NCBI RefSeq assembly: GCF_049554935.1
Contig: NZ_CP186926.1
Coordinates: 448,001-512,000 of the forward strand
From: Methanocaldococcus indicus
Lineage (GTDB): Archaea; AGJL01; Methanococci; Methanococcales; Methanocaldococcaceae
Direction: 5' to 3'
Length of the DNA: 64,000 bases
Shown here: positions 1 through 55,050 of the stretch, in pieces
How the letters are laid out: every line of letters starts with the position of its first letter
How positions within the stretch are numbered: the stretch's first letter is position 1
Position numbers and translations under genes: made by a program
The notes under the pieces: model-generated
Database searches by the model: none
Told to the model about the DNA's origin: nothing
What the model saw: the letters and a program-made list of their open reading frames with translations, nothing else

Positions 1-76
1 TTTTTACTATTTCTTCTTGTCCAACAACTTCATCCAATGTCTTTGGTCTATATTTCTCTACCCATGGCTTTTCCAT
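1..76 (-). CDS. rfcS: Replication factor C small subunit, 5' part (runs off window)
   Basis: Minus strand reads [25 protein letters not shown] ([11 protein letters not shown] motif) after a GGTGA RBS; not in ORF track. Confidence 0.9.
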
Positions 77-98
77 ACTTTCACCTAAAAAGATTTAA

Positions 99-1382
99 TT
101 ATTTAACTTCTATATTTGCTCCTAAACTTCTCATAACTTCTATAAAATTAGGAAATGATATTTTTACAGATTCCTCATTGTCAATTATTGTCTCTCCTTC
201 TGCTTTTAATCCAGCTATGGTAAATGCCATAACTAACCTGTGGTCATGATAGGTATTTAATTTGGCTCCTTTAAGTTTTTTAACTCCTTCTATTATTAAT
301 CCATCTTTTCTCTCTTCAATCTTAGCTCCCATCTTTTTTAATTCAGTATAACAAGCTCTTAATCTATCACTCTCTTTATATCTTACATGTTCAGCATTGT
401 AAATTTTAGTTTTTCCTTCTGCAAAACATCCTAAAACTGCTAAGGTAGGAACTAAATCTGGAATATCCTTAGCATCTATATCTATCCCTTCTAAATTATA
501 TTCTCCATTTAATATAACTCTATCTTTTTTAACTTTTATATCTGCTCCCATCTCTCTAACAATTTCAACAATTTTTTTATCTCCTTGCTTAGAATTTTCA
601 AATAAATTAATTATTTCAATATTTGAATTAATTAAGACACCAGCTGCTATTAAATAGGATGATGAGGAATAATCACCTTCAACAGTATAATCTATATTTT
701 TATATTTTTGATTTCCATAAACTAAAAAACCATCCTCTAAGACTTCAACTTTTATTCCAAATTTATCTAATATGTCAAGAGTTATGTCTATGTATGGTTT
801 AGATTTCAGTGGAGTTGTTAATTCTATTTTAGTATCCTCTTTATTAAATGGTAAGAGCATTAAAAGAGAAGTTATAAATTGTGAGCTAATATCTCCTCTT
901 ATTCTTACTAAATTCCCATCTATTTCTCCACTTTCTACAATAATTGGAGCTGTTCCATCCAATTTTGATGAGAATGCATTTATATTTATTTGTTTTAGAG
1001 CATCTAACAATGGTTGCATTGGTCTTTTTCTTATAGAGGAATCTCCTGTTAAAATAGCATATCCCTTAGGAATTAATGAAGATAAAGAAGTTAAAATTCT
1101 CAAAGTTGTTCCACTATTTCCAACATCTATAATATTGTCAGGAGTTTTATACTCCCCACCTTCAACAATCCAAACATCATCTTTTAAATTTAGAGTTATT
1201 TTAGTTCCTAACTTCCTACAAGAATATACAGAAGATAAGCAATCTTTACCCCATAATGGTGAATATATCTTACTAATTCCATTAGCTAAACTTGCTCCAA
1301 TAACTGCTCTATGTGTGTAAGATTTTGATGGAGGTGCTTTAACTTTTCCTTCTAAATAGTCAGTTTTTCTAACAATTAACAA
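99..1382 (-). CDS. aroA: 3-phosphoshikimate 1-carboxyvinyltransferase (EPSP synthase)
   Basis: PPSKSYTHR, GNSGTTLR, RPMQPL, SSQFITS, KESDR, DHRLVMA motifs; likely TTG start at 1382 after GGTGA. Confidence 0.96.
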   Translation of the reverse strand: MLIVRKTDYLEGKVKAPPSKSYTHRAVIGASLANGISKIYSPLWGKDCLSSVYSCRKLGTKITLNLKDDVWIVEGGEYKTPDNIIDVGNSGTTLRILTSLSSLIPKGYAILTGDSSIRKRPMQPLLDALKQININAFSSKLDGTAPIIVESGEIDGNLVRIRGDISSQFITSLLMLLPFNKEDTKIELTTPLKSKPYIDITLDILDKFGIKVEVLEDGFLVYGNQKYKNIDYTVEGDYSSSSYLIAAGVLINSNIEIINLFENSKQGDKKIVEIVREMGADIKVKKDRVILNGEYNLEGIDIDAKDIPDLVPTLAVLGCFAEGKTKIYNAEHVRYKESDRLRACYTELKKMGAKIEERKDGLIIEGVKKLKGAKLNTYHDHRLVMAFTIAGLKAEGETIIDNEESVKISFPNFIEVMRSLGANIEVK

Positions 1383-1480
1383 ATCTCTCACCAATTGATG
1401 ACTATAATTTAAAATAGTCCAAAACTTATTTATATTGGTTTAGTCCCAGAAATATATAAACTATAACTAAGTGATTAGTT

Positions 1481-1585
1481 ATGAGCTTAAAATCAAGATT
1501 AATATTTTTATTAATATTCACATTATTAGTTTTATTATTATCTGGATGTATTGATTTTCACCATCACTACCATCATGATTGGTAA
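1481..1585 (+). CDS. 34-aa His-rich mini-lipoprotein MSLKSRLIFLLIFTLLVLLLSGCIDFHHHYHHDW
   Basis: Read manually. TATA-like AATATATAAA at 1451-1460, GTGA RBS at 1471, basic N-region, hydrophobic core, LLSGC lipobox-like motif, His-rich tail, T-tract after stop. Confidence 0.7.
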   Translation: MSLKSRLIFLLIFTLLVLLLSGCIDFHHHYHHDW

Positions 1586-1646
1586 TTTTTTTCTTTTAAA
1601 TACTATATAATTTAAATTTTTTACTAATAATAAATTAGGAGATAAT

Positions 1647-2153
1647 ATGCCAACAACTTATGAATTAAAAATTTATGAAAAGGTTCAACATGTTGGGTTT
1701 AGGGATAGGATTGAAAATATTGGAAGGGGTTTAGGGATTGATGGGATTGTTTATAATCATAAAGATGGTAGTGTTAGGATTTTAGCAAACTTTGATGATG
1801 AAGAGGATAAGGAATTGTTCAAAAAATATATTAAAAGATTGGAAAAGAAAGATAAATTAATTAAAATTGAGAAGATAGAGGAGAGGGAGTTAAATACCTA
1901 TATTGAGTTTCCAGAAGGGATTAATAGGATTTCAGCAGATGATTTAATAGAGTTAAATAAAAAATTAGATGAAGGAGTTAAATATATCAAGCTGATTTTT
2001 AGTGAGTTAGAGGAGCATAAAAAGATTTTAATAATGGCATTAGATGAACTAAAAGAACATAAAAAGATATTATTAGATATAAAAGAAACTCAATTAAAAA
2101 TATTAGAAAAATTAGACAAAATAAGTGAAATATTAGAAAAAAGATTTATTTAA
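1647..2153 (+). CDS. Acylphosphatase-like domain with C-terminal coiled coil
   Basis: KVQHVGFR and VYNHKDGSV acylphosphatase motifs; heptad repeats [18 protein letters not shown]. Confidence 0.8.
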
Positions 2154-2163
2154 ACATAAAATG

Positions 2164-2234
2164 CCCCCCTGTTGGCCCACGCTCCTGATGTAGCAGAGGC
2201 TAAAAATGAGGGAGCGTCGGATGCAGGGGGGACA
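2164..2234 (+). ncRNA. Archaeal H/ACA box pseudouridylation guide sRNA
   Basis: GC-rich island: lower stem CCCCCCTG/CAGGGGGG, internal pocket, upper stem ACGCTCC/GGAGCGT, K-turn-like CTGA...TGA, apical hairpin TAGC-AGAG-GCTA, terminal ACA 14 nt from top of pocket. Confidence 0.85.
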
Positions 2235-2235
2235 T

Positions 2236-2847
2236 TTATTCATCTAAGTGTATTAAAGAAGGAGTAACTGTTTTTTGGTATTTATATTTAGAAGATTTTC
2301 TTTCTGAATAACCTATTTTTGCAGGGCTATTTAAATAGCTAAATATGAGTTGTCCAATTCTTTGATTTTTGTATAAAATAACTGGCTTATCGAAAGCTAT
2401 AATTTCTAAGGTAATTTTTCCTTTAAATCCTGCATCTATCCATCCAGCAGTTTGGTGAGATGTTAAAAATATCCTACCCAAGGAACTTCTCCCTTGATAT
2501 TGAGCACAAATATTGTTAGGTAACTCAATATATTCATTTGTTGTTCCCAATATTCCCCCTTCAACAACACAATCAACATTGTATTTTTCTTTAAAATAGT
2601 TAATTTTCTCATCTGTTAAATTGTAGTTTAAAGGGCAAACTAAAATAGAGTTTTTTATTTTTATTTTTTTATAGTTCATCTCTCTTTTTAGGTCATATAC
2701 TTCATTCTCATAAATAATAAATTCATCTCCTAATGTTACATCATAAGAAGATGGCCCAACAAATTCCTCATTGAATGGAGTTATTTTTAAATCTCCTTTT
2801 TTTATTAGAGTTAGAATATCTACATCACTTAGTATCAACAAAATCAC
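2236..2847 (-). CDS. dcd: dCTP deaminase (probably bifunctional dUMP-forming type)
   Basis: ILSD start, PSSYDVTLG, GRSSLGR, AGWIDAGFKGKITLE motifs. Confidence 0.93.
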   Translation of the reverse strand: MILLILSDVDILTLIKKGDLKITPFNEEFVGPSSYDVTLGDEFIIYENEVYDLKREMNYKKIKIKNSILVCPLNYNLTDEKINYFKEKYNVDCVVEGGILGTTNEYIELPNNICAQYQGRSSLGRIFLTSHQTAGWIDAGFKGKITLEIIAFDKPVILYKNQRIGQLIFSYLNSPAKIGYSERKSSKYKYQKTVTPSLIHLDE

Positions 2848-3591
2848 CTAAATTCTATATTTATCTAAATAGCCCCTTGGAGCTACTATTTTATTGTCCA
2901 ATATTTTTGTTTTAGAGTTTCCAATAATTAGGAGTGTGTTCATATCTATATAATCTAAATAATAATTCAGATTGTTTAAAATTTCTTTGGTTGTAGTTAT
3001 TTTTACCTCTTCTTTTTCTCTTCCAGCATTCTTTACTATTCCAACAATTCTATCAATATCCATATCTCTTATAATCTCAAATGCCTTAATAAATGGTTCT
3101 TTTCTTCTCTTACTCAAGGGATTATAGATGTTGATTATATAGTCTCCTTCCAAAGCTAATTTAAATCTCTTTAAAATCAAATCTAATGGAGTTAATAAAT
3201 CACTAAAACTTATAACCACAAAATCATGATTTAGAGGGCTACCTAATAAAGAAGAAGCAATTAAAGCTGATGTAAGTCCTGGAATAACTCTAATTTCTAC
3301 ATTAAAATTTTTTTTATAATTAATTTCATAAGCTAATGAAGCTAATCCATATACAGTAGCATCTCCTGAAGATACTAATGCAACATCCAAAGTTTTAGCT
3401 TTTTCCAATGCAAACATAACTCTGTCTATCTCTTTTGTCATTCCAGTTGTATATATCTCTTTATTGAATCTTTCAACATACTTTTTATAACCTTTATAGC
3501 ACACAATTAAATCAACTTTATTTAGTATTTCCTCAGCTTCAAAAGTAAAATGTTTTTTATTTCCACTACCAATACCAACAACATACAACAT
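2848..3591 (-). CDS. cbiH: Precorrin-3B C17-methyltransferase (CbiH/CobJ)
   Basis: LYVVGIGSG, VSSGDATVYG, GSPLNHDF, IYNP, DMNTLLIIGN, PRGY. Confidence 0.9.
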   Translation of the reverse strand: MLYVVGIGSGNKKHFTFEAEEILNKVDLIVCYKGYKKYVERFNKEIYTTGMTKEIDRVMFALEKAKTLDVALVSSGDATVYGLASLAYEINYKKNFNVEIRVIPGLTSALIASSLLGSPLNHDFVVISFSDLLTPLDLILKRFKLALEGDYIINIYNPLSKRRKEPFIKAFEIIRDMDIDRIVGIVKNAGREKEEVKITTTKEILNNLNYYLDYIDMNTLLIIGNSKTKILDNKIVAPRGYLDKYRI

Positions 3592-4631
3592 TACTTAACC
3601 CTCTTTAATACCCCTTTTATATAGTTCTCTATTTTTATGTTTATTTCATCTTTTAACACATCTAATAGTTTTTTATGCTCTTCTGAAATGTTAATTCCCT
3701 CATCTTTATAAGGTGTTTTCTCTAATTTTTTCTCACATAATAAAACATCTAAATCTGTAAATGTTCCATATAGTTCCCAACCTGTTGTTTTAACTTCTTT
3801 CTCTATCCAATGAGCCAATTTAGTTCCATAAATTGAGAATAGTGGGAACTTTGTTATTACATTTGAGCCAGAGGATAGTAGAGGACTAACCATTGGAACT
3901 TTATCAGTCCATATTCCTGTTATTATTTTAATCTTTGGAAAAGCTAATCTAACTGATGAAACCCAATTCATATACTCCAAAGTTGTTACTGATGGTTTAT
4001 TTTCATAAATAGTTCCTTTTTGTGGATTTAGGGAGTAGAAGGTTATCCTATCCAATTCTAACTCTTCAATAAGATTTAAAAGCTTTTCAATATCTTCCTC
4101 TCTCTCCTCCAATCCTAAAATTATAGTTATTCCTGTTTTTAAACCTAAATCCTTAGCTTTTATTAAAAAATCTTTTATTTTGTCTAATGGCTTTCCAGGA
4201 CAGATTTTTTCTCTATTTCTTAATGTTTCTACTGCCCCTACAACTCCTTCAATAACATCTAAATTTAATCTATCCAAGTCAGTTATTCCTACATTTAAAT
4301 ATTGTTTAGTTTTTTGCACATAAGCTACTAATTCAGCTATTCTATTAATCTCTTCAACACTATATCCATAACCTCCTGAGATAAATTCCAACTTCCAACC
4401 TATTCTTTTCATTAGAATAGCCTCTGCCAATATACTTGCTAAACTTCTTCTTGCTAATTTTGGAGATGAAATTTTATCCTTCTGTGTGCTCATATAACAA
4501 AACTTACAGGGCTTATCCAATGAACAATACCATCCTAAAAATAGAGCTCTCTCAAAAGATACATAATCAAAATGTTTTAAAGTTAGTTTATAAGCTTTTA
4601 TTGCATTCTCTAAAACTTCATCAACCTTCAT
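3591..4631 (-). CDS. Radical SAM protein, BioB-like, with CX5CX2C motif
   Basis: CSLDKPCKFC, ISGG, TGITIILGLEE, LNPQKGT. Confidence 0.8.
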   Translation of the reverse strand: MKVDEVLENAIKAYKLTLKHFDYVSFERALFLGWYCSLDKPCKFCYMSTQKDKISSPKLARRSLASILAEAILMKRIGWKLEFISGGYGYSVEEINRIAELVAYVQKTKQYLNVGITDLDRLNLDVIEGVVGAVETLRNREKICPGKPLDKIKDFLIKAKDLGLKTGITIILGLEEREEDIEKLLNLIEELELDRITFYSLNPQKGTIYENKPSVTTLEYMNWVSSVRLAFPKIKIITGIWTDKVPMVSPLLSSGSNVITKFPLFSIYGTKLAHWIEKEVKTTGWELYGTFTDLDVLLCEKKLEKTPYKDEGINISEEHKKLLDVLKDEINIKIENYIKGVLKRVK

Positions 4632-5052
4632 AGCTCTTCTCCATATACTTCTCTAATAATTTAGATGGAACTCTTGTCTCAAAACCTAACCTCTCCAATA
4701 TCATATTTGTAAGAATTATTTTTAGTATCTCTTTTCCTTCTTTTGATGTAGTTATTTCATTCAACTTTCTACTAATAGCAGGAGATTTTAACTTTTTTAG
4801 TACCTCTGCTATCTCTTCCTCAGAAATTCTACCTTTTTTCTTTTTATAAATTGTATCAGCTATTTCTTCCAACTTTTTCATATCAAAAGGTAAATACTCT
4901 AAAAATTTCTTTGAGACAGTTTCATCAATAGATAACAACAATCTTGCTATTTCTATATCTTCAACATTTTCATCTATTTTTAACTTTTTTACAACAAACC
5001 AATTTTTATGTTTTGCAAAGAACTCAATTCTTTCCTCCAAATATCTCACCAA
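4621..5052 (-). CDS. Conserved hypothetical archaeal protein (DUF2666-like)
   Basis: Long ORF in operon; IEFFAKHKNW...EIARLL pattern. Confidence 0.6.
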   Translation of the reverse strand: MVRYLEERIEFFAKHKNWFVVKKLKIDENVEDIEIARLLLSIDETVSKKFLEYLPFDMKKLEEIADTIYKKKKGRISEEEIAEVLKKLKSPAISRKLNEITTSKEGKEILKIILTNMILERLGFETRVPSKLLEKYMEKSYEG

Positions 5053-5061
5053 AATTTTAAT

Positions 5062-6105
5062 TTATTTTAAATCTTTTAATAAGTTATAAATTAATTTATA
5101 TGTATTCTCTAAATCTCTTTTATCTATAACTTCAACAGGAGTATGGATATATCTTGCAGGAACTGATAAAACTCCTGTTGGAATTCCTTCCCTAACTAAA
5201 TGAATAGCTGTTCCATCAGTTGTTCCTCCTTCTCCAACCTCTAACTGATAAGGAATATTATACTTTTCAGCAGTATCTTTTAACAATTTTAAAACTTCTG
5301 GATGAGCAATTAACCCTCTTCCAGATGCATCAGCAATATCAATAACTACCCCTTTTCCCAAATCAACAGGTGCATCTTCTTTTTTAATTCCTGGATGGTC
5401 TCCTGCAATAGTAACATCAATAGCTAATGCCAAATCAGGATTTATCTTATAAGCTGATACCTTAGCTCCTTTTAAACCAACCTCTTCCTGAACAGTTCCA
5501 ACTAAATAAACTTGACAATTTAAATCTTCTTTTGATAAATTTTTAGCCAACTCTAACAATATAGAGCATCCAACTCTATCATCAAATGCCTTTCCTGTTA
5601 ATCTATTTTTCCCTAACTCATTTAATTCAGCTATAAATGATACTGGAGTTCCAATATTAACTCCCATCTCTATTGCTTCCTCTCTACATTCTGCTCCAAT
5701 ATCTATAAACATATCTTCATATTTTATTATTTTGTTTCTTTCTTCTTCCTTCATTCTGTGAGGTGGTTTAGAACCTAAAACCCCTATTAAATCTCCTTTC
5801 TCTCCATGGACTTTAACTTTTTGATTTAAAATAGTTGGGTCATATATACCTCCTATCTTTGTAAATTTTAAGAATCCATTATCATCAATATATTTAACCA
5901 TTAAACCTATTTCATCAATATGGGCAGCAATCATAACTCTTTTTCCTTTATCTCCAATTTTGGCAATTACATTTCCAAACTTATCAACTTCAACCTCACA
6001 GTATTTTTTTAGCTCCTCTACCATATAACTTCTTACACTATCCTCTCTACCAGATATACCAGACAATTCTGTTAATTTTTTTAAATATTCCAATAACATA
6101 ATCAA
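5062..6105 (-). CDS. M42 family metallo-aminopeptidase (TET/FrvX-like)
   Basis: [38 protein letters not shown]. Confidence 0.92.
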
Positions 6106-24295: not shown

Positions 24296-25063
24296 CTAAA
24301 TGACTTCAAATCCATATTTTTTAAATATCTTCTTTCCATCTGTTATTACAAAATTGTAAAATTTCTCAGCAGCTTCTTTATTTTTAGTTGTGGATAGTAT
24401 TGCTATTGGAATAGTTTTTATAACATTGTATTTTGGAGATATATCAATTATATCCACTTTATCCTTGTTCTCAATTGCATCTGCCCTCCAAACAATTGCA
24501 GCATCTACTTGTTTCTCCATAACATAAAATAAAACTTGCTTTACAGTAGCTCCTTTTACAACTACATTTTTATTGATTTTTTCTGAAATTCCTGGATAAT
24601 CTTTGTCTAACTTTTCAAATATCTTATTAGTTGCTCTACCAATTGCAATATTACTATCTCCTAATGCTATTTTCACACCTGGTTTTGCTAAATCAAGTAT
24701 TGAAGTTATATGTTTTGGATTCCCTTTTTGTACAACAATAACAGGAATATGCTTTGTTATGTTTGTATAGTTCAGAATCATACCTTTCTTTTTTAACTCA
24801 TTTACATAGTATAAAGCCCCTGGCATAAAGATATCTCCACTTTTTGAGCTTAAAATTTGAGAATATAAATATCCACTTCCTGCATAGGTATATTCAACCT
24901 TTATTCCATACTTTTTCTCAAAAAGCTTCCCAATTTCATCCATTGGCTCTTGCATTCCAGCTCCAACATATGCATGTATTACCTCTTTTGAATTTTCTTT
25001 ATTTGTGCATCCACAAATGCTAACTAATAAAAGTATGGGAATAATGATTAGAATTTTTTTCAT
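24296..25063 (-). CDS. modA: Molybdate ABC substrate-binding lipoprotein
   Basis: SICGC lipobox, GAGMQEP, YAGSGYL, VDAAIVW. Confidence 0.88.
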   Translation of the reverse strand: MKKILIIIPILLLVSICGCTNKENSKEVIHAYVGAGMQEPMDEIGKLFEKKYGIKVEYTYAGSGYLYSQILSSKSGDIFMPGALYYVNELKKKGMILNYTNITKHIPVIVVQKGNPKHITSILDLAKPGVKIALGDSNIAIGRATNKIFEKLDKDYPGISEKINKNVVVKGATVKQVLFYVMEKQVDAAIVWRADAIENKDKVDIIDISPKYNVIKTIPIAILSTTKNKEAAEKFYNFVITDGKKIFKKYGFEVI

Positions 25064-54468: not shown

Positions 54469-55050
54469 ATGAAAAAATTTTTTATCTGCTTTTTAATAAT
54501 TTTTTTACTAATTTGTGGATGTATTGATAACAATTCAAAAGATATAGATAAAAATAACAAAAATAATGTAAATAATAGTTCTCTAAATGAGAGTATTATC
54601 ACGAAAAATCTCAATAAATCTATATTAAATACTACAAGTAAAACTACAAATATAACAGAAATAAAAAGAAATGTTAAAAAAATTAATCTTGAAAATATAA
54701 ACTTGAATGTGTCTATTGATAGGTTGTTTTTAAATTTGAATTATAGTAACACAATAATTGGAAATAATATTATTGTAAAGAAATATAAGAATATAAGTTT
54801 TGTTGTTAGTATGTATCCAATAAATTTAAGAGATGCATATAAATTTAATAATGTTAAGGAATATCCTCAACAAGATATTTATGGAAAATATTACTACTAT
54901 GAATTTTATTCTTTATCAAACTCCCAAGTAAGTTATTGTTATTATAGAAAGGTTGGGAATTATTATATTATCTTACAAGGATACAATAAAAAAGAGTTAT
55001 CAAAATTCTGGGATGATTGGATTAACTACCTTGCAAATCTTAAAAAATAA
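54469..55050 (+). CDS. Hypothetical lipoprotein with Asn-rich linker
   Basis: LICGC lipobox-like signal. Confidence 0.65.
   Translation: MKKFFICFLIIFLLICGCIDNNSKDIDKNNKNNVNNSSLNESIITKNLNKSILNTTSKTTNITEIKRNVKKINLENINLNVSIDRLFLNLNYSNTIIGNNIIVKKYKNISFVVSMYPINLRDAYKFNNVKEYPQQDIYGKYYYYEFYSLSNSQVSYCYYRKVGNYYIILQGYNKKELSKFWDDWINYLANLKK

Follow-up and report, generated by a model that had tools for sequence, protein, structure and literature searches.

The 64,000-nt stretch of the Methanocaldococcus indicus chromosome analysed here (the window) contains a candidate ORF of 34 codons that lies wholly within an intergenic gap. Its neighbours are aroA, which is divergent, an acylphosphatase-like gene of 168 amino acids located 61 nt downstream, and a dCTP deaminase gene. 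Both the position (1481–1585, plus strand) and the 34-residue sequence given in an earlier note on this DNA match exactly. The note had also called the ORF unannotated. The exact peptide is absent from a collection of 15 billion proteins in which the adjacent 168-residue protein is present (sources NCBI and UniRef), and the ORF is therefore unannotated. The features of the locus are:

1429–1436, either strand: TATA-like element TTTATATT, called from the sequence, with the spacing rule taken from established knowledge
1451–1458, either strand: TATA-like element AATATATA, called on the same basis; the element named in the earlier note
1462–1483, plus strand: 9-bp inverted repeat (arms 1462–1470 and 1475–1483) with loop GTGA, from a fold of 1455–1600
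1471–1475, plus strand: Shine-Dalgarno-like GTGAT, 5 nt ahead of the ATG
1481–1585, plus strand: candidate 34-codon ORF encoding MSLKSRLIFLLIFTLLVLLLSGCIDFHHHYHHDW (34 amino acids; stop included in the coordinates)
1481–1546, plus strand: predicted signal peptide M1–G22, with n-region MSLKSR and h-region L7–L20, matching the lipobox-signal expression
1538–1549, plus strand: lipobox L20-S21-G22-C23, fitting [L/V/I][A/S/T/V/I][G/A/S]C
1547–1582, plus strand: predicted mature peptide C23–W34, CIDFHHHYHHDW, as the lipobox would define it
1559–1576, plus strand: His cluster HHHYHH (CAC CAT CAC TAC CAT CAT), five His in six residues
1586–1597, plus strand: T7CT4 tract abutting the stop codon, a candidate archaeal oligo-T terminator

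The ATG at 1481 is the only possible start of the ORF because an in-frame TGA occupies 1472–1474. The ribosome-binding site GTGA of the earlier note is present as GTGAT, 5 nt before this ATG, and so is its T-tract: the stop codon TAA (1583–1585) is followed directly by T7 (1586–1592), a C, and T4 (1594–1597). A single T of the tract is missing in sequencing run X2. The class of 5-mers to which the ribosome-binding motif belongs is found upstream of 33% of 952 long ORFs, compared with 1.6% of 4509 small ORFs. Within 15 nt after the stop, a run of five or more T is seen for 8.8% of the small intergenic ORFs, which lie outside long ORFs (n = 477), and for 15% of the long ORFs (n = 952). The ribosome-binding motif precedes 26 of the 477, and five combine the motif with the T run after the stop; the other four of the five include ribosomal protein S27a.

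The TATA-like element AATATATA, which the earlier note had assigned to the ORF as its own, is present, but its ownership is unclear, as the divergent intergenic region must also hold the aroA promoter. Only 12 nt separate the end of AATATATA from GTGAT. An archaeal TATA element is usually centred about 26 nt upstream of the transcription start site, and a transcript from AATATATA would begin at about the ORF ATG and would lack the ribosome-binding motif; because this spacing is too short, the element and the motif could not serve one transcript. Read on the plus strand, TTTATATT would be a better fit, giving a start site near 1459 and including the motif in a leader of about 22 nt. On the minus strand TTTATATT fits the aroA promoter, and the TATA-like elements near the ORF may simply be those of aroA. 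The inverted repeat at 1462–1483 covers the ribosome-binding motif and the ATG, and the fold of the whole fragment 1455–1600 has a z of −0.96. Runs X2 and X3 carry about 6 nt of inserted letters at 1459–1467, just 3′ of AATATATA. The inverted repeat is probably not conserved, because these indels hit its left arm. An Rfam scan of positions 1–6000 of the window gave no match at E up to 1.

The 61 nt past the ORF stop have a GC content of 10% and show no remnant of coding sequence, so that the ORF end looks native and not like a fresh truncation, which goes against the alternative, raised in the earlier note, of a longer gene that had been frameshifted or truncated. Comparison of the aroA flanks at 16 loci of the same genus (17 with that of the genome itself; one flank is just 195 nt) revealed no common neighbour and no related small ORF. 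By its gene order, the ORF locus is a synteny breakpoint. The downstream 168-residue gene belongs to a multi-copy, patchy and partly pseudogenised family, and none of about 30 copies of this acylphosphatase-like neighbour in relatives has a comparable small ORF upstream. Leader-peptide attenuation of aroA was considered for the Phe, Tyr, Trp and His residues in the tail next to a shikimate-pathway gene; it was rejected because the ORF points away from aroA.

The N terminus of the ORF product has the layout of a lipoprotein signal peptide. It consists of a basic n-region with Lys-4 and Arg-6, an unbroken, uncharged h-region from Leu-7 to Leu-20, and Cys-23, which lies within the range of about 15–30 residues from the start. 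The sequence L20-S21-G22-C23 agrees with the lipobox consensus of L, V or I at −3, A, S, T, V or I at −2, G, A or S at −1, and C at +1, as given in the available part of PMC12462473. The signal peptide was called with a regular expression that also selects nine long lipoproteins of the genome. This loose lipobox-signal expression matches 2 of the 4277 ATG-initiated ORFs of 20–49 amino acids, namely the candidate ORF and one poor match, and 9 of the 1451 ORFs of at least 100 amino acids. The long proteins it matches have 156–489 residues and include those reading ...LLLSGCINN, ...LICGCIDNN, and ...LFSGCVSQ. At least ten canonical lipobox proteins suggest, indirectly, that a lipoprotein pathway exists in this genome.

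The three lipoproteins of the window to which the earlier note had likened the LLSGC motif were all located. The LICGC protein starts at 54469 (plus strand, 193 amino acids), the SICGC protein at 25063 (minus strand, 255 amino acids; Pfam SBP_bac_11 match), and the LFSGC protein at about 10252 (minus strand, 376 amino acids; Pfam Peripla_BP_2 match), so that two of the three are solute-binding proteins by Pfam. Lipoproteins of relatives read LSGCIDFGNSEY, FSGCIDYQND, and LSGCIDLNND, which makes CID[FLY] the usual mature start of lipoproteins in this order. Markov-simulated genomes, scanned with the loose expression as a null model, gave 0.67–1.0 matches per genome; among ten null matches listed, one had G at −1 and [ILVF][NDTSEK] after the Cys. 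The highest feature scores in the ESM Atlas reached 0.87, for clusters of 39–41 amino acids, a recognition below the usual level. A weak lead comes from one ESM Atlas cluster, scoring 0.77, in which 22% of the members have a Pfam lipoprotein-attachment family.

The five-His-in-six cluster described in the earlier note is present and is shared with one other chromosomal locus only. In a six-frame translation of the 1.41-Mb chromosome (about 2.8 million codons), at least five His in six residues occur at just two loci. The second is a 142-residue chelatase of the CbiX/CfbA type with an H12 run, and this run of the CbiX-family protein is the counterpart of the His-rich region in type I CfbA. The reported alternation of CAC and CAT codons holds for the first three His residues (CAC CAT CAC) but not for those that follow, (TAC) CAT CAT. 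The lower AT content reported relative to the flanks holds for the tail, with a GC content of 0.36 (1550–1582) against 0.22 and 0.10, but not for the signal-peptide part (0.17) or the whole ORF (0.23). Four of the nine His, Tyr, and Phe codons of the ORF end in C, compared with about 17% in long ORFs; a binomial estimate made by hand puts this excess at about 0.05, which is marginal, and it fades once Asp and Cys are included.

The host is a methanogen, as the earlier note had supposed, with McrA and two CbiM-type Ni/Co transporter genes. The CbiM loci, at 0.80 and 1.40 Mb, are far from the ORF at 0.449 Mb, and no link between the ORF and metal uptake was found. A metal-scavenging role of the peptide is what we only infer. 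For the His-rich region of type I CfbA, the authors of PMC8179277 suggest, in the part of the paper available, that it may bind Ni, and they report that it is not critical for in vitro activity.

A DNA search of 40 relatives, 16 of them of the same genus, found no homologue of the ORF. The best match of a translated search of the same 40 genomes had an E value of 0.004, and every match was at the level of the signal peptide only. No match to the ORF peptide was found among 1.84 billion protein representatives, and none to the ORF in plasmid and phage collections. The pattern G-C-x-x-F-HHH-x-HH matched 90 metagenome loci (80 of which were fetched and read) and 28 genome loci; none of these 118 matches had a signal peptide or came from this order. 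The ORF with SGC and a His tail that the earlier note proposed to look for in relatives was thus found in none of the 40 genomes, nor among the 1.84 billion representatives or in the pattern scans. Within the genome, a DNA paralogue search gave short AT-rich matches only. A second translated match in the genome itself, at 233834, was discarded as an out-of-frame stretch containing a stop, and five further weak translated matches were discarded as frames without a start or lipobox. By these searches the ORF is an orphan, apparently confined to one species. A literature search, with most subscription journals outside its coverage, yielded no description of a His-rich micro-lipoprotein in archaea.

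In a near-identical strain (runs X2 and X3, from a study that differs from that of X1), the start, frame, lipobox, His cluster, and stop of the ORF are all intact. The four sequencing runs compared with the locus consist of DNA contigs. Two strain differences are listed within the ORF, and both are replacing (I24L and D33G), where the earlier note had hoped for silent changes; in the adjacent aroA stretch of the same strains, 10 of 11 differences are silent. These are counts of differences listed, and one of the 16 substitutions in X2 contig record 6 falls outside them. Comparison of the replacement counts of the ORF and aroA by a hypergeometric estimate made by hand gives p of about 0.04, and this points to weak or absent purifying selection on the tail. 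The pattern of a conserved coding gene, an orthologue together with an excess of silent changes, was not seen (0 of 40 relatives; 0 silent and 2 replacing, where n = 2 gives very low power). A contig of X2 diverges from the window after 1633, which might point to a strain with another right-hand neighbour. A 14-letter motif from the diverging contig is absent in this genome.

The features of the ORF are too gene-like for chance. We tentatively favour, at somewhat less than an even chance, a species-restricted candidate gene that encodes a real, exported, surface-tethered His-rich peptide. Translation of the ORF is reasonably probable. Once translated, the product would quite likely be processed as a lipoprotein, and given both steps it is fairly likely that metal binding is the selected function. 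A specific metal-handling role of the peptide is less certain. In Methanosarcina mazei, Ribo-seq identified 314 unannotated small ORFs as translated (PMC11456600, in the part available). Translation of unannotated small ORFs is thus common in a methanogen, which we count in favour of the ORF as a gene.

According to the proposed mechanism, the ORF would be transcribed alone from the divergent aroA-side intergenic region, translation would begin at the GTGAT-ATG start, and the oligo-T tract would end transcription. The prepeptide would be exported by Sec, Cys-23 would gain a thioether-linked archaeol, and the 22-residue signal peptide would be removed. Thioether-linked archaeol has been demonstrated on lipoproteins of Haloferax (PMC12462473; bioRxiv 10.64898/2026.03.08.710431, both in part). 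This would yield a lipopeptide of 12 residues, CIDFHHHYHHDW, anchored on the outside of the membrane. Divalent transition metals (Ni, Co, Zn, and perhaps Cu) would bind to its HHHYHH motif, and the lipopeptide could concentrate or buffer metals at the cell surface. We know of no lipoprotein smaller than this predicted mature peptide. In its most specific form the proposal is a lipid-anchored natural His-tag, an archaeol-linked 12-mer with HHHYHH as its sole feature that captures Ni, Co, or Zn on the surface of a nickel-dependent hyperthermophile and is encoded by a young species-specific gene; all of this together is conceivable but rather doubtful.

The main rival reading is that the ORF is a relic, the functionless 5′ stub (promoter, start, signal peptide, lipobox, and His-rich start) of a longer His-rich lipoprotein gene, perhaps still expressed, with the remainder of the gene lost when the locus was rearranged. 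We consider this unlikely, though a serious contender. As parent, the strongest candidate would be a paralogue of the staphylococcal-nuclease-type lipoproteins found in the genus. Of the 19 weak translated matches that were read, six are N termini from a single family of nuclease lipoproteins, including the two best (E values of 0.004 and 0.009). These proteins carry His and Tyr past the lipobox Cys, as in SGCLSFHSSKEYYHGK, SGCFSHHNSYNS..HEHFYGK, and GGCIELHNNNFHD, and the nuclease lipoprotein of the genome itself, which has a Pfam SNase match, reads CGCLNNHHELRVDGHEF. A relic would also agree with the position of the ORF at a synteny breakpoint adjoining a mobile-looking multi-copy gene, with its orphan status, and with the replacing nature of both listed strain differences. 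However, no remainder of a nuclease domain is present in any frame near 1586–2240, and six nuclease lipoprotein queries, in translated searches, match only residues 1–31 at the ORF locus, with E values of at least 0.015. Because intact genes for nuclease and thioredoxin-like lipoproteins exist elsewhere in the genome, no parent gene is missing. The ORF has no DNA-level paralogue in the genome, and the 61 nt past the stop, at 10% GC, are unlike decayed coding sequence. Five His in six residues are denser than in any candidate parent, and the start, lipobox, stop, and T-tract are intact in two alleles.

A second alternative is an uncleaved small membrane peptide, with Lys-4 and Arg-6 inside, a transmembrane helix from Leu-7 to Gly-22, and the His tail outside. 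It might belong to a membrane complex, as a small subunit or a modulator, or act as a toxin-like hydrophobic peptide of the kind that borders mobile elements, for which the bacterial type I toxins offer a comparison. The length of 34 residues, the basic N terminus, and the hydrophobic core of 14–16 residues are what such a peptide would have; the position next to a multi-copy, patchy gene family and the orphan status also speak for it. Nevertheless, we consider this improbable. The canonical L-S-G-C-I-D context, of the same kind as in the real lipoproteins of the host, would be left unexplained if the peptide were not processed. Neither an antisense RNA nor a partner gene was found in the ORF lists, the fold, or the Rfam scan, and the roughly 30 other copies of the neighbour family that were examined have no similar ORF upstream.

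It is likewise improbable that the ORF is an untranslated, non-functional product of AT-rich composition and a small CAY repeat. T-rich DNA easily encodes runs of Leu, Ile, and Phe, about one loose lipobox match is expected per null genome, and the ORF is an unannotated orphan. Against this, the tight lipobox context is found in only about one of ten null matches, and a ribosome-binding motif precedes just 1.6% of small ORFs. No second non-genic His cluster of this kind occurs in about 2.8 million six-frame codons, and the ORF sits entirely in an intergenic gap. As an order-of-magnitude estimate, the joint expectation for these features would be far below one per genome.

Much less credible is a CutF-like, metal-sensing leader peptide that acts in cis, its metal-binding nascent chain being exported during translation and thereby tuning expression of the downstream gene. 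The ORF does combine a Sec-type signal with a metal-binding motif 61 nt ahead of a gene, and CutF-like families with His-only motifs adjoin Ni/Co HupE/UreJ genes (PMC9973294, in the part available). However, no Pfam family matches the ORF at E up to 0.1, and hence there is no DUF2946, and the tail ends in HHDW and not in a proline-rich C terminus. The fold of 1560–1665 gives −12.3 kcal/mol (z = −1.56), 16 of 200 shuffles fold equally well, and there is no convincing stem-loop at the downstream ribosome-binding site. Between the ORF and the downstream gene there are the oligo-T tract and a separate TATA-like element; that gene is acylphosphatase-like and not metal-related, and its other copies have no ORF of this kind ahead of them. 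The second option of the earlier note, a precursor of a modified peptide made by the ribosome, can be practically set aside. In its favour are just the short length and the uncommon His/aromatic tail, whereas precursors of this type do not typically have a lipobox signal as their leader, and the ORF shares an operon with no modifying enzyme or export gene. The closest radical-SAM gene (3591–4631) lies 2 kb away on the opposite strand, beside a corrin methylase gene.

If the favoured His-rich lipopeptide is made and lipidated, archaeal lipoproteins would extend down to a mature part of 12 residues, and a surface-tethered metal-binding peptide would join the possible means by which methanogens handle nickel, cobalt, and zinc. 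Work on lipidation by AliA and AliB would gain a very small natural substrate that brings its own His handle, of use also in finding an archaeal lipoprotein signal peptidase; the enzymes described for archaeal lipoproteins in the available parts of PMC12462473 and bioRxiv 10.64898/2026.03.08.710431 are lipidation enzymes only. As a young gene, it would also illustrate one route to a new surface function, by reuse of a lipoprotein signal peptide together with a few His codons. If the ORF is a stub instead, it would be a clean case of a rearrangement leaving behind a signal-peptide fragment that looks expressed, and gene callers and small-ORF screens would have to handle such fragments carefully. 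Under either reading this is a single-species feature, and its present weight is modest.

Among bacterial lipoproteins, the entericidins EcnA and EcnB and Lpp have very short mature parts, and short His-rich segments that bind Ni or Zn are known from Helicobacter Hpn and the N terminus of ZinT. All of these are bacterial and have no sequence relation to the ORF, and to our knowledge none has both a lipobox and a mature part made up of little more than a His cluster. With the archaeal lipobox lipoproteins, as presented in the parts of PMC12462473 and bioRxiv 10.64898/2026.03.08.710431 available, the ORF shares the basic n-region, the h-region, and a lipobox of the L-S-G-C type; these proteins are exported by Sec, and their thioether-archaeol anchoring depends on AliA and AliB. 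The first mature residues C-I-D match those of the host's own lipoproteins. Unlike the lipobox proteins of the host (156–489 amino acids), the predicted mature part of the ORF product has 12 residues and no folded domain.

The SNase-type lipoproteins of the same genus show the best resemblance to the ORF, which is weak and not significant (E at least 0.004 per genome). The ORF contains no SNase domain, whereas the full-length match to the nuclease queries is at chromosome positions 518987–519538. The CutF-like DUF2946 leaders of bacteria (PMC9973294, in part) resemble the ORF in being small, with a Sec-type signal and a metal-binding motif, and in their position upstream of a gene, and His-only CutF variants exist. 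The ORF differs from them in having no DUF2946, no proline-rich stalling tail, no shielding stem-loop, and no metal-related gene downstream. Like type I CfbA of Methanocaldococcus jannaschii (PMC8179277, in part), the ORF encodes a dense His run, probably disordered, and belongs to a methanogen that depends on nickel. The His run of CfbA is cytoplasmic and lies within an enzyme, whereas the run predicted for the ORF would lie outside the cytoplasm and account for nearly all of the product.

The 34-codon open reading frame (ORF) at 1481-1585 on the + strand encodes MSLKSRLIFLLIFTLLVLLLSGCIDFHHHYHHDW, with the position and sequence reported in the earlier note. The ATG is the sole possible start, because a TGA stands in frame at 1472-1474. 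The ribosome-binding motif GTGAT is found 5 nt upstream of the ATG, and the TAA stop is immediately followed by the T-tract T7CT4, both as previously described. By motif, the sequence of the ORF is that of a lipobox lipoprotein. The three lipobox proteins first compared with it all lie in the window (LICGC at 54469, +; SICGC at 25063, -; LFSGC at ~10252, -), and two of the three are solute-binding proteins according to Pfam. The ORF is indeed unannotated, since the exact peptide is missing from a collection of 15 billion proteins in which its 168-aa neighbor is present (NCBI, UniRef).

Features of the ORF locus (position, strand, feature, basis)
Left of the ORF, - strand: aroA (EPSP synthase); Pfam
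1429-1436, no strand assigned: TATA-like TTTATATT; sequence
1451-1458, no strand assigned: TATA-like AATATATA; sequence
1481-1585, + strand: ORF; sequence and in-frame TGA upstream
1647-2153, + strand: 168-aa acylphosphatase-like gene; Pfam PF00708, residues 8-87
~2159-2237, both strands folded: GC-rich hairpin; fold z-scores
Right of the hairpin, - strand: dCTP deaminase; Pfam

Other parts of the original description hold only partially. The alternation of His codons applies to the first three but not to those that follow (CAC CAT CAC (TAC) CAT CAT), and the lower AT content relative to the flanks is seen in the tail (GC 0.36 versus 0.22 and 0.10) but not in the signal-peptide part (GC 0.17). 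The TATA-like AATATATA, claimed as the ORF's own, is present, but the same divergent intergenic region must house the aroA promoter. Its end is 12 nt upstream of GTGAT, and under the usual archaeal promoter geometry this spacing is too tight for a TATA element and GTGAT in one transcript. The TATA-like TTTATATT is compatible with a leader of ~22 nt. The aroA start on the - strand is probably TTG 1380-1382 rather than the TTG at 1392-1394 of the ORF listing, because the proteins of relatives align from residue 4-5 on and GGTGA lies 5 nt upstream. This GGTGA is the complement of 1388-1392, and the same motif occurs at that aroA position in every relative.

The ORF is not a product of chance, and four lines of evidence concur in this. 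A regular expression combining a basic n-region, an unbroken hydrophobic stretch and a lipobox matches two of the 4277 ATG-ORFs of 20-49 aa (the ORF and one poor match), and nine of the 1451 ORFs of at least 100 aa. Lipoproteins in relatives read LSGCIDFGNSEY, FSGCIDYQND and LSGCIDLNND, so the first mature residues of the ORF, C-I-D-F, are typical too. In Markov-simulated genomes a loose version of the expression yields 0.67-1.0 matches per genome, and just one among the 10 null matches listed combines G at -1 with a typical pair of residues following the Cys. Across all six frames of the 1.41-Mb chromosome, at least five His in six residues occur at two loci only: the ORF and a CbiX-family chelatase of 142 aa that contains an H12 run. 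The ribosome-binding 5-mer is found upstream of 33% of 952 long ORFs versus 1.6% of 4509 small ones. The motif is present in 26 of the 477 small ORFs that lie outside long ones, and just five combine it with a T5+ run 3' of the stop; the ORF is one of these, and ribosomal protein S27a another. Taken together, the rarities of these features make a purely accidental origin very unlikely, as an order-of-magnitude combination rather than a computed value. Outside the window, a 21-codon Arg/Lys-rich ORF, MARKRTRTRRKKKSGRRKKRK (chromosome ~876440, +), likewise pairs a strong ribosome-binding motif with a T-tract 3' of its stop; it resembles ribosomal protein L41e but has no Pfam match. Unannotated small ORFs are commonly translated in another methanogen (PMC11456600).

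A conserved ORF in relatives, which the earlier note had hoped to see, was not found: a translated search of 40 relatives gave a best E value of 0.004, and at the DNA level the whole intergenic region gave short AT-rich matches only. The weak translated matches that were read through proved to be either N termini of long lipoproteins or frames in which a start or a lipobox is missing. An exhaustive phmmer search over 1.84 billion protein representatives returned no match to the peptide, nor did the plasmid and phage collections. Scanning for the back-translated pattern G-C-x-x-F-HHH-x-HH gave 90 metagenome and 28 genome loci; none of the 108 read, out of 118, had a signal peptide upstream or came from this order.

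In a near-identical strain, represented by contigs of two sequencing runs from a study separate from that of the probable source, the ORF is intact from its ATG to its stop, with frame, lipobox and His cluster kept. Two differences are listed within it, and each alters a residue, contrary to the silent changes anticipated: 1550 A>C gives I24L and 1578 A>G gives D33G. The count is of listed changes, as one of 16 substitutions on the longest contig of one run is unlisted. The signal-peptide part has no listed change. In 395 nt of the adjoining aroA, 10 of 11 differences are silent (p ~0.04 for the contrast, by a hand hypergeometric calculation). With two events, these data oppose strong constraint on the tail only weakly. 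The strain also carries insertions of ~6 nt at 1459-1467. These fall within a 9-bp inverted repeat covering both GTGAT and ATG and disrupt its left arm, so the repeat is probably non-functional.

The site is rearranged and accessory-looking, because the right-hand flank is absent from all 16 aroA loci examined in the same genus and the 168-aa neighbor is patchy and multi-copy. Its family is present in 22 of 41 genomes (own included), with up to eight matches per genome, some on small second contigs and several with internal stops; this genome's second copy, which is broken, lies at chromosome 888229-888690. In the sequencing runs, contigs break or end loose at 1647, which shows that the repeated part begins at the start codon of this gene, whose product looks coiled-coil in its C-terminal half. 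The GC-rich hairpin at 2159-2237, in a genome of 28% GC, is very stable, with folding energies of -43.9 (+) and -39.8 kcal/mol (-) and z-scores of -5.1 and -5.4, respectively. It matches nothing in Rfam and probably represents either a structured RNA not yet described or a mobile hairpin element. It occurs once in its own genome and at 76-92% identity in five of 16 same-genus genomes, in different contexts: four after an elongation-factor-2 gene and one between purA-like and aRF1-like genes, as named from reading translations rather than from Pfam.

Our preferred reading, held tentatively, is that the ORF is a real, species-restricted gene for an exported, lipidated peptide with a surface His cluster. 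The prepeptide would be exported via Sec and Cys23 would receive a thioether-linked archaeol, a modification shown for Haloferax lipoproteins (PMC12462473; bioRxiv 10.64898/2026.03.08.710431). After subsequent removal of the signal peptide, CIDFHHHYHHDW would remain on the outer face of the membrane, and its His cluster could bind Ni, Co or Zn there. Every step beyond the sequence features is one that we infer. The organism is a methanogen, as had been stated, with McrA in its genome; its two CbiM-type Ni/Co transporter loci are both distant from the ORF.

The ORF could instead be a functionless stub of a once-longer His-rich lipoprotein gene, which we consider unlikely but worth weighing. Of the 19 weak matches read through, six are N termini of nuclease-type lipoproteins (Pfam SNase), the two best matches among them. 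In this family His and Tyr come after the lipobox Cys, as in SGCLSFHSSKEYYHGK and SGCFSHHNSY, and it is the best lead to the origin of the ORF. Recent truncation is opposed by several observations. Translated searches with six nuclease-family queries match residues 1-31 only at this locus, and the 61 nt 3' of the stop are 10% GC and closed in all frames, so the frameshifted continuation named earlier as a possible refutation is not found. The nuclease lipoprotein gene (chromosome 518987-519538) and a thioredoxin-like lipoprotein are intact elsewhere in the genome, which has no DNA paralogue of the ORF. The ORF may still be an old, clean stub. The nuclease lipoproteins are a conserved family (the own copy, 7 kb past the window end, plus six other sequences), in which the linker directly behind the lipobox Cys carries many His, Tyr and Asn residues, as in CLNNHHELRVDGHEFKYYYYGK, and differs strongly from species to species. 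One from a relative weakly matches the 193-aa LICGC protein (54469-55047, +; 24% identity, E 0.001), which is rich in Asn, Lys and Ser and falls in no Pfam family (E up to 0.001).

It is improbable that the product is an uncleaved small membrane or toxin-like peptide, and equally so that the ORF is untranslated. A CutF-like exported metal-sensing leader peptide is very improbable, since a DUF2946 match, a proline-rich stretch in the tail, a shielding stem-loop and a metal-related downstream gene are all lacking. A modified-peptide precursor, the other function suggested at the outset, has the slightest chance of all.

The ORF is a neat and cheaply testable curiosity, a single-species orphan known from its sequence. 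It belongs to none of the sequence families tested, and no archaeal His-rich micro-lipoprotein was found in the literature searched, which takes in few subscription journals. The CbiX-family chelatase (chromosome 1344418-1344846), in which 12 consecutive His are followed by EHE, has the only other dense His cluster of the genome and agrees with the published His-rich type I CfbA architecture. In contrast to known lipoproteins, the ORF product has almost no mature part.
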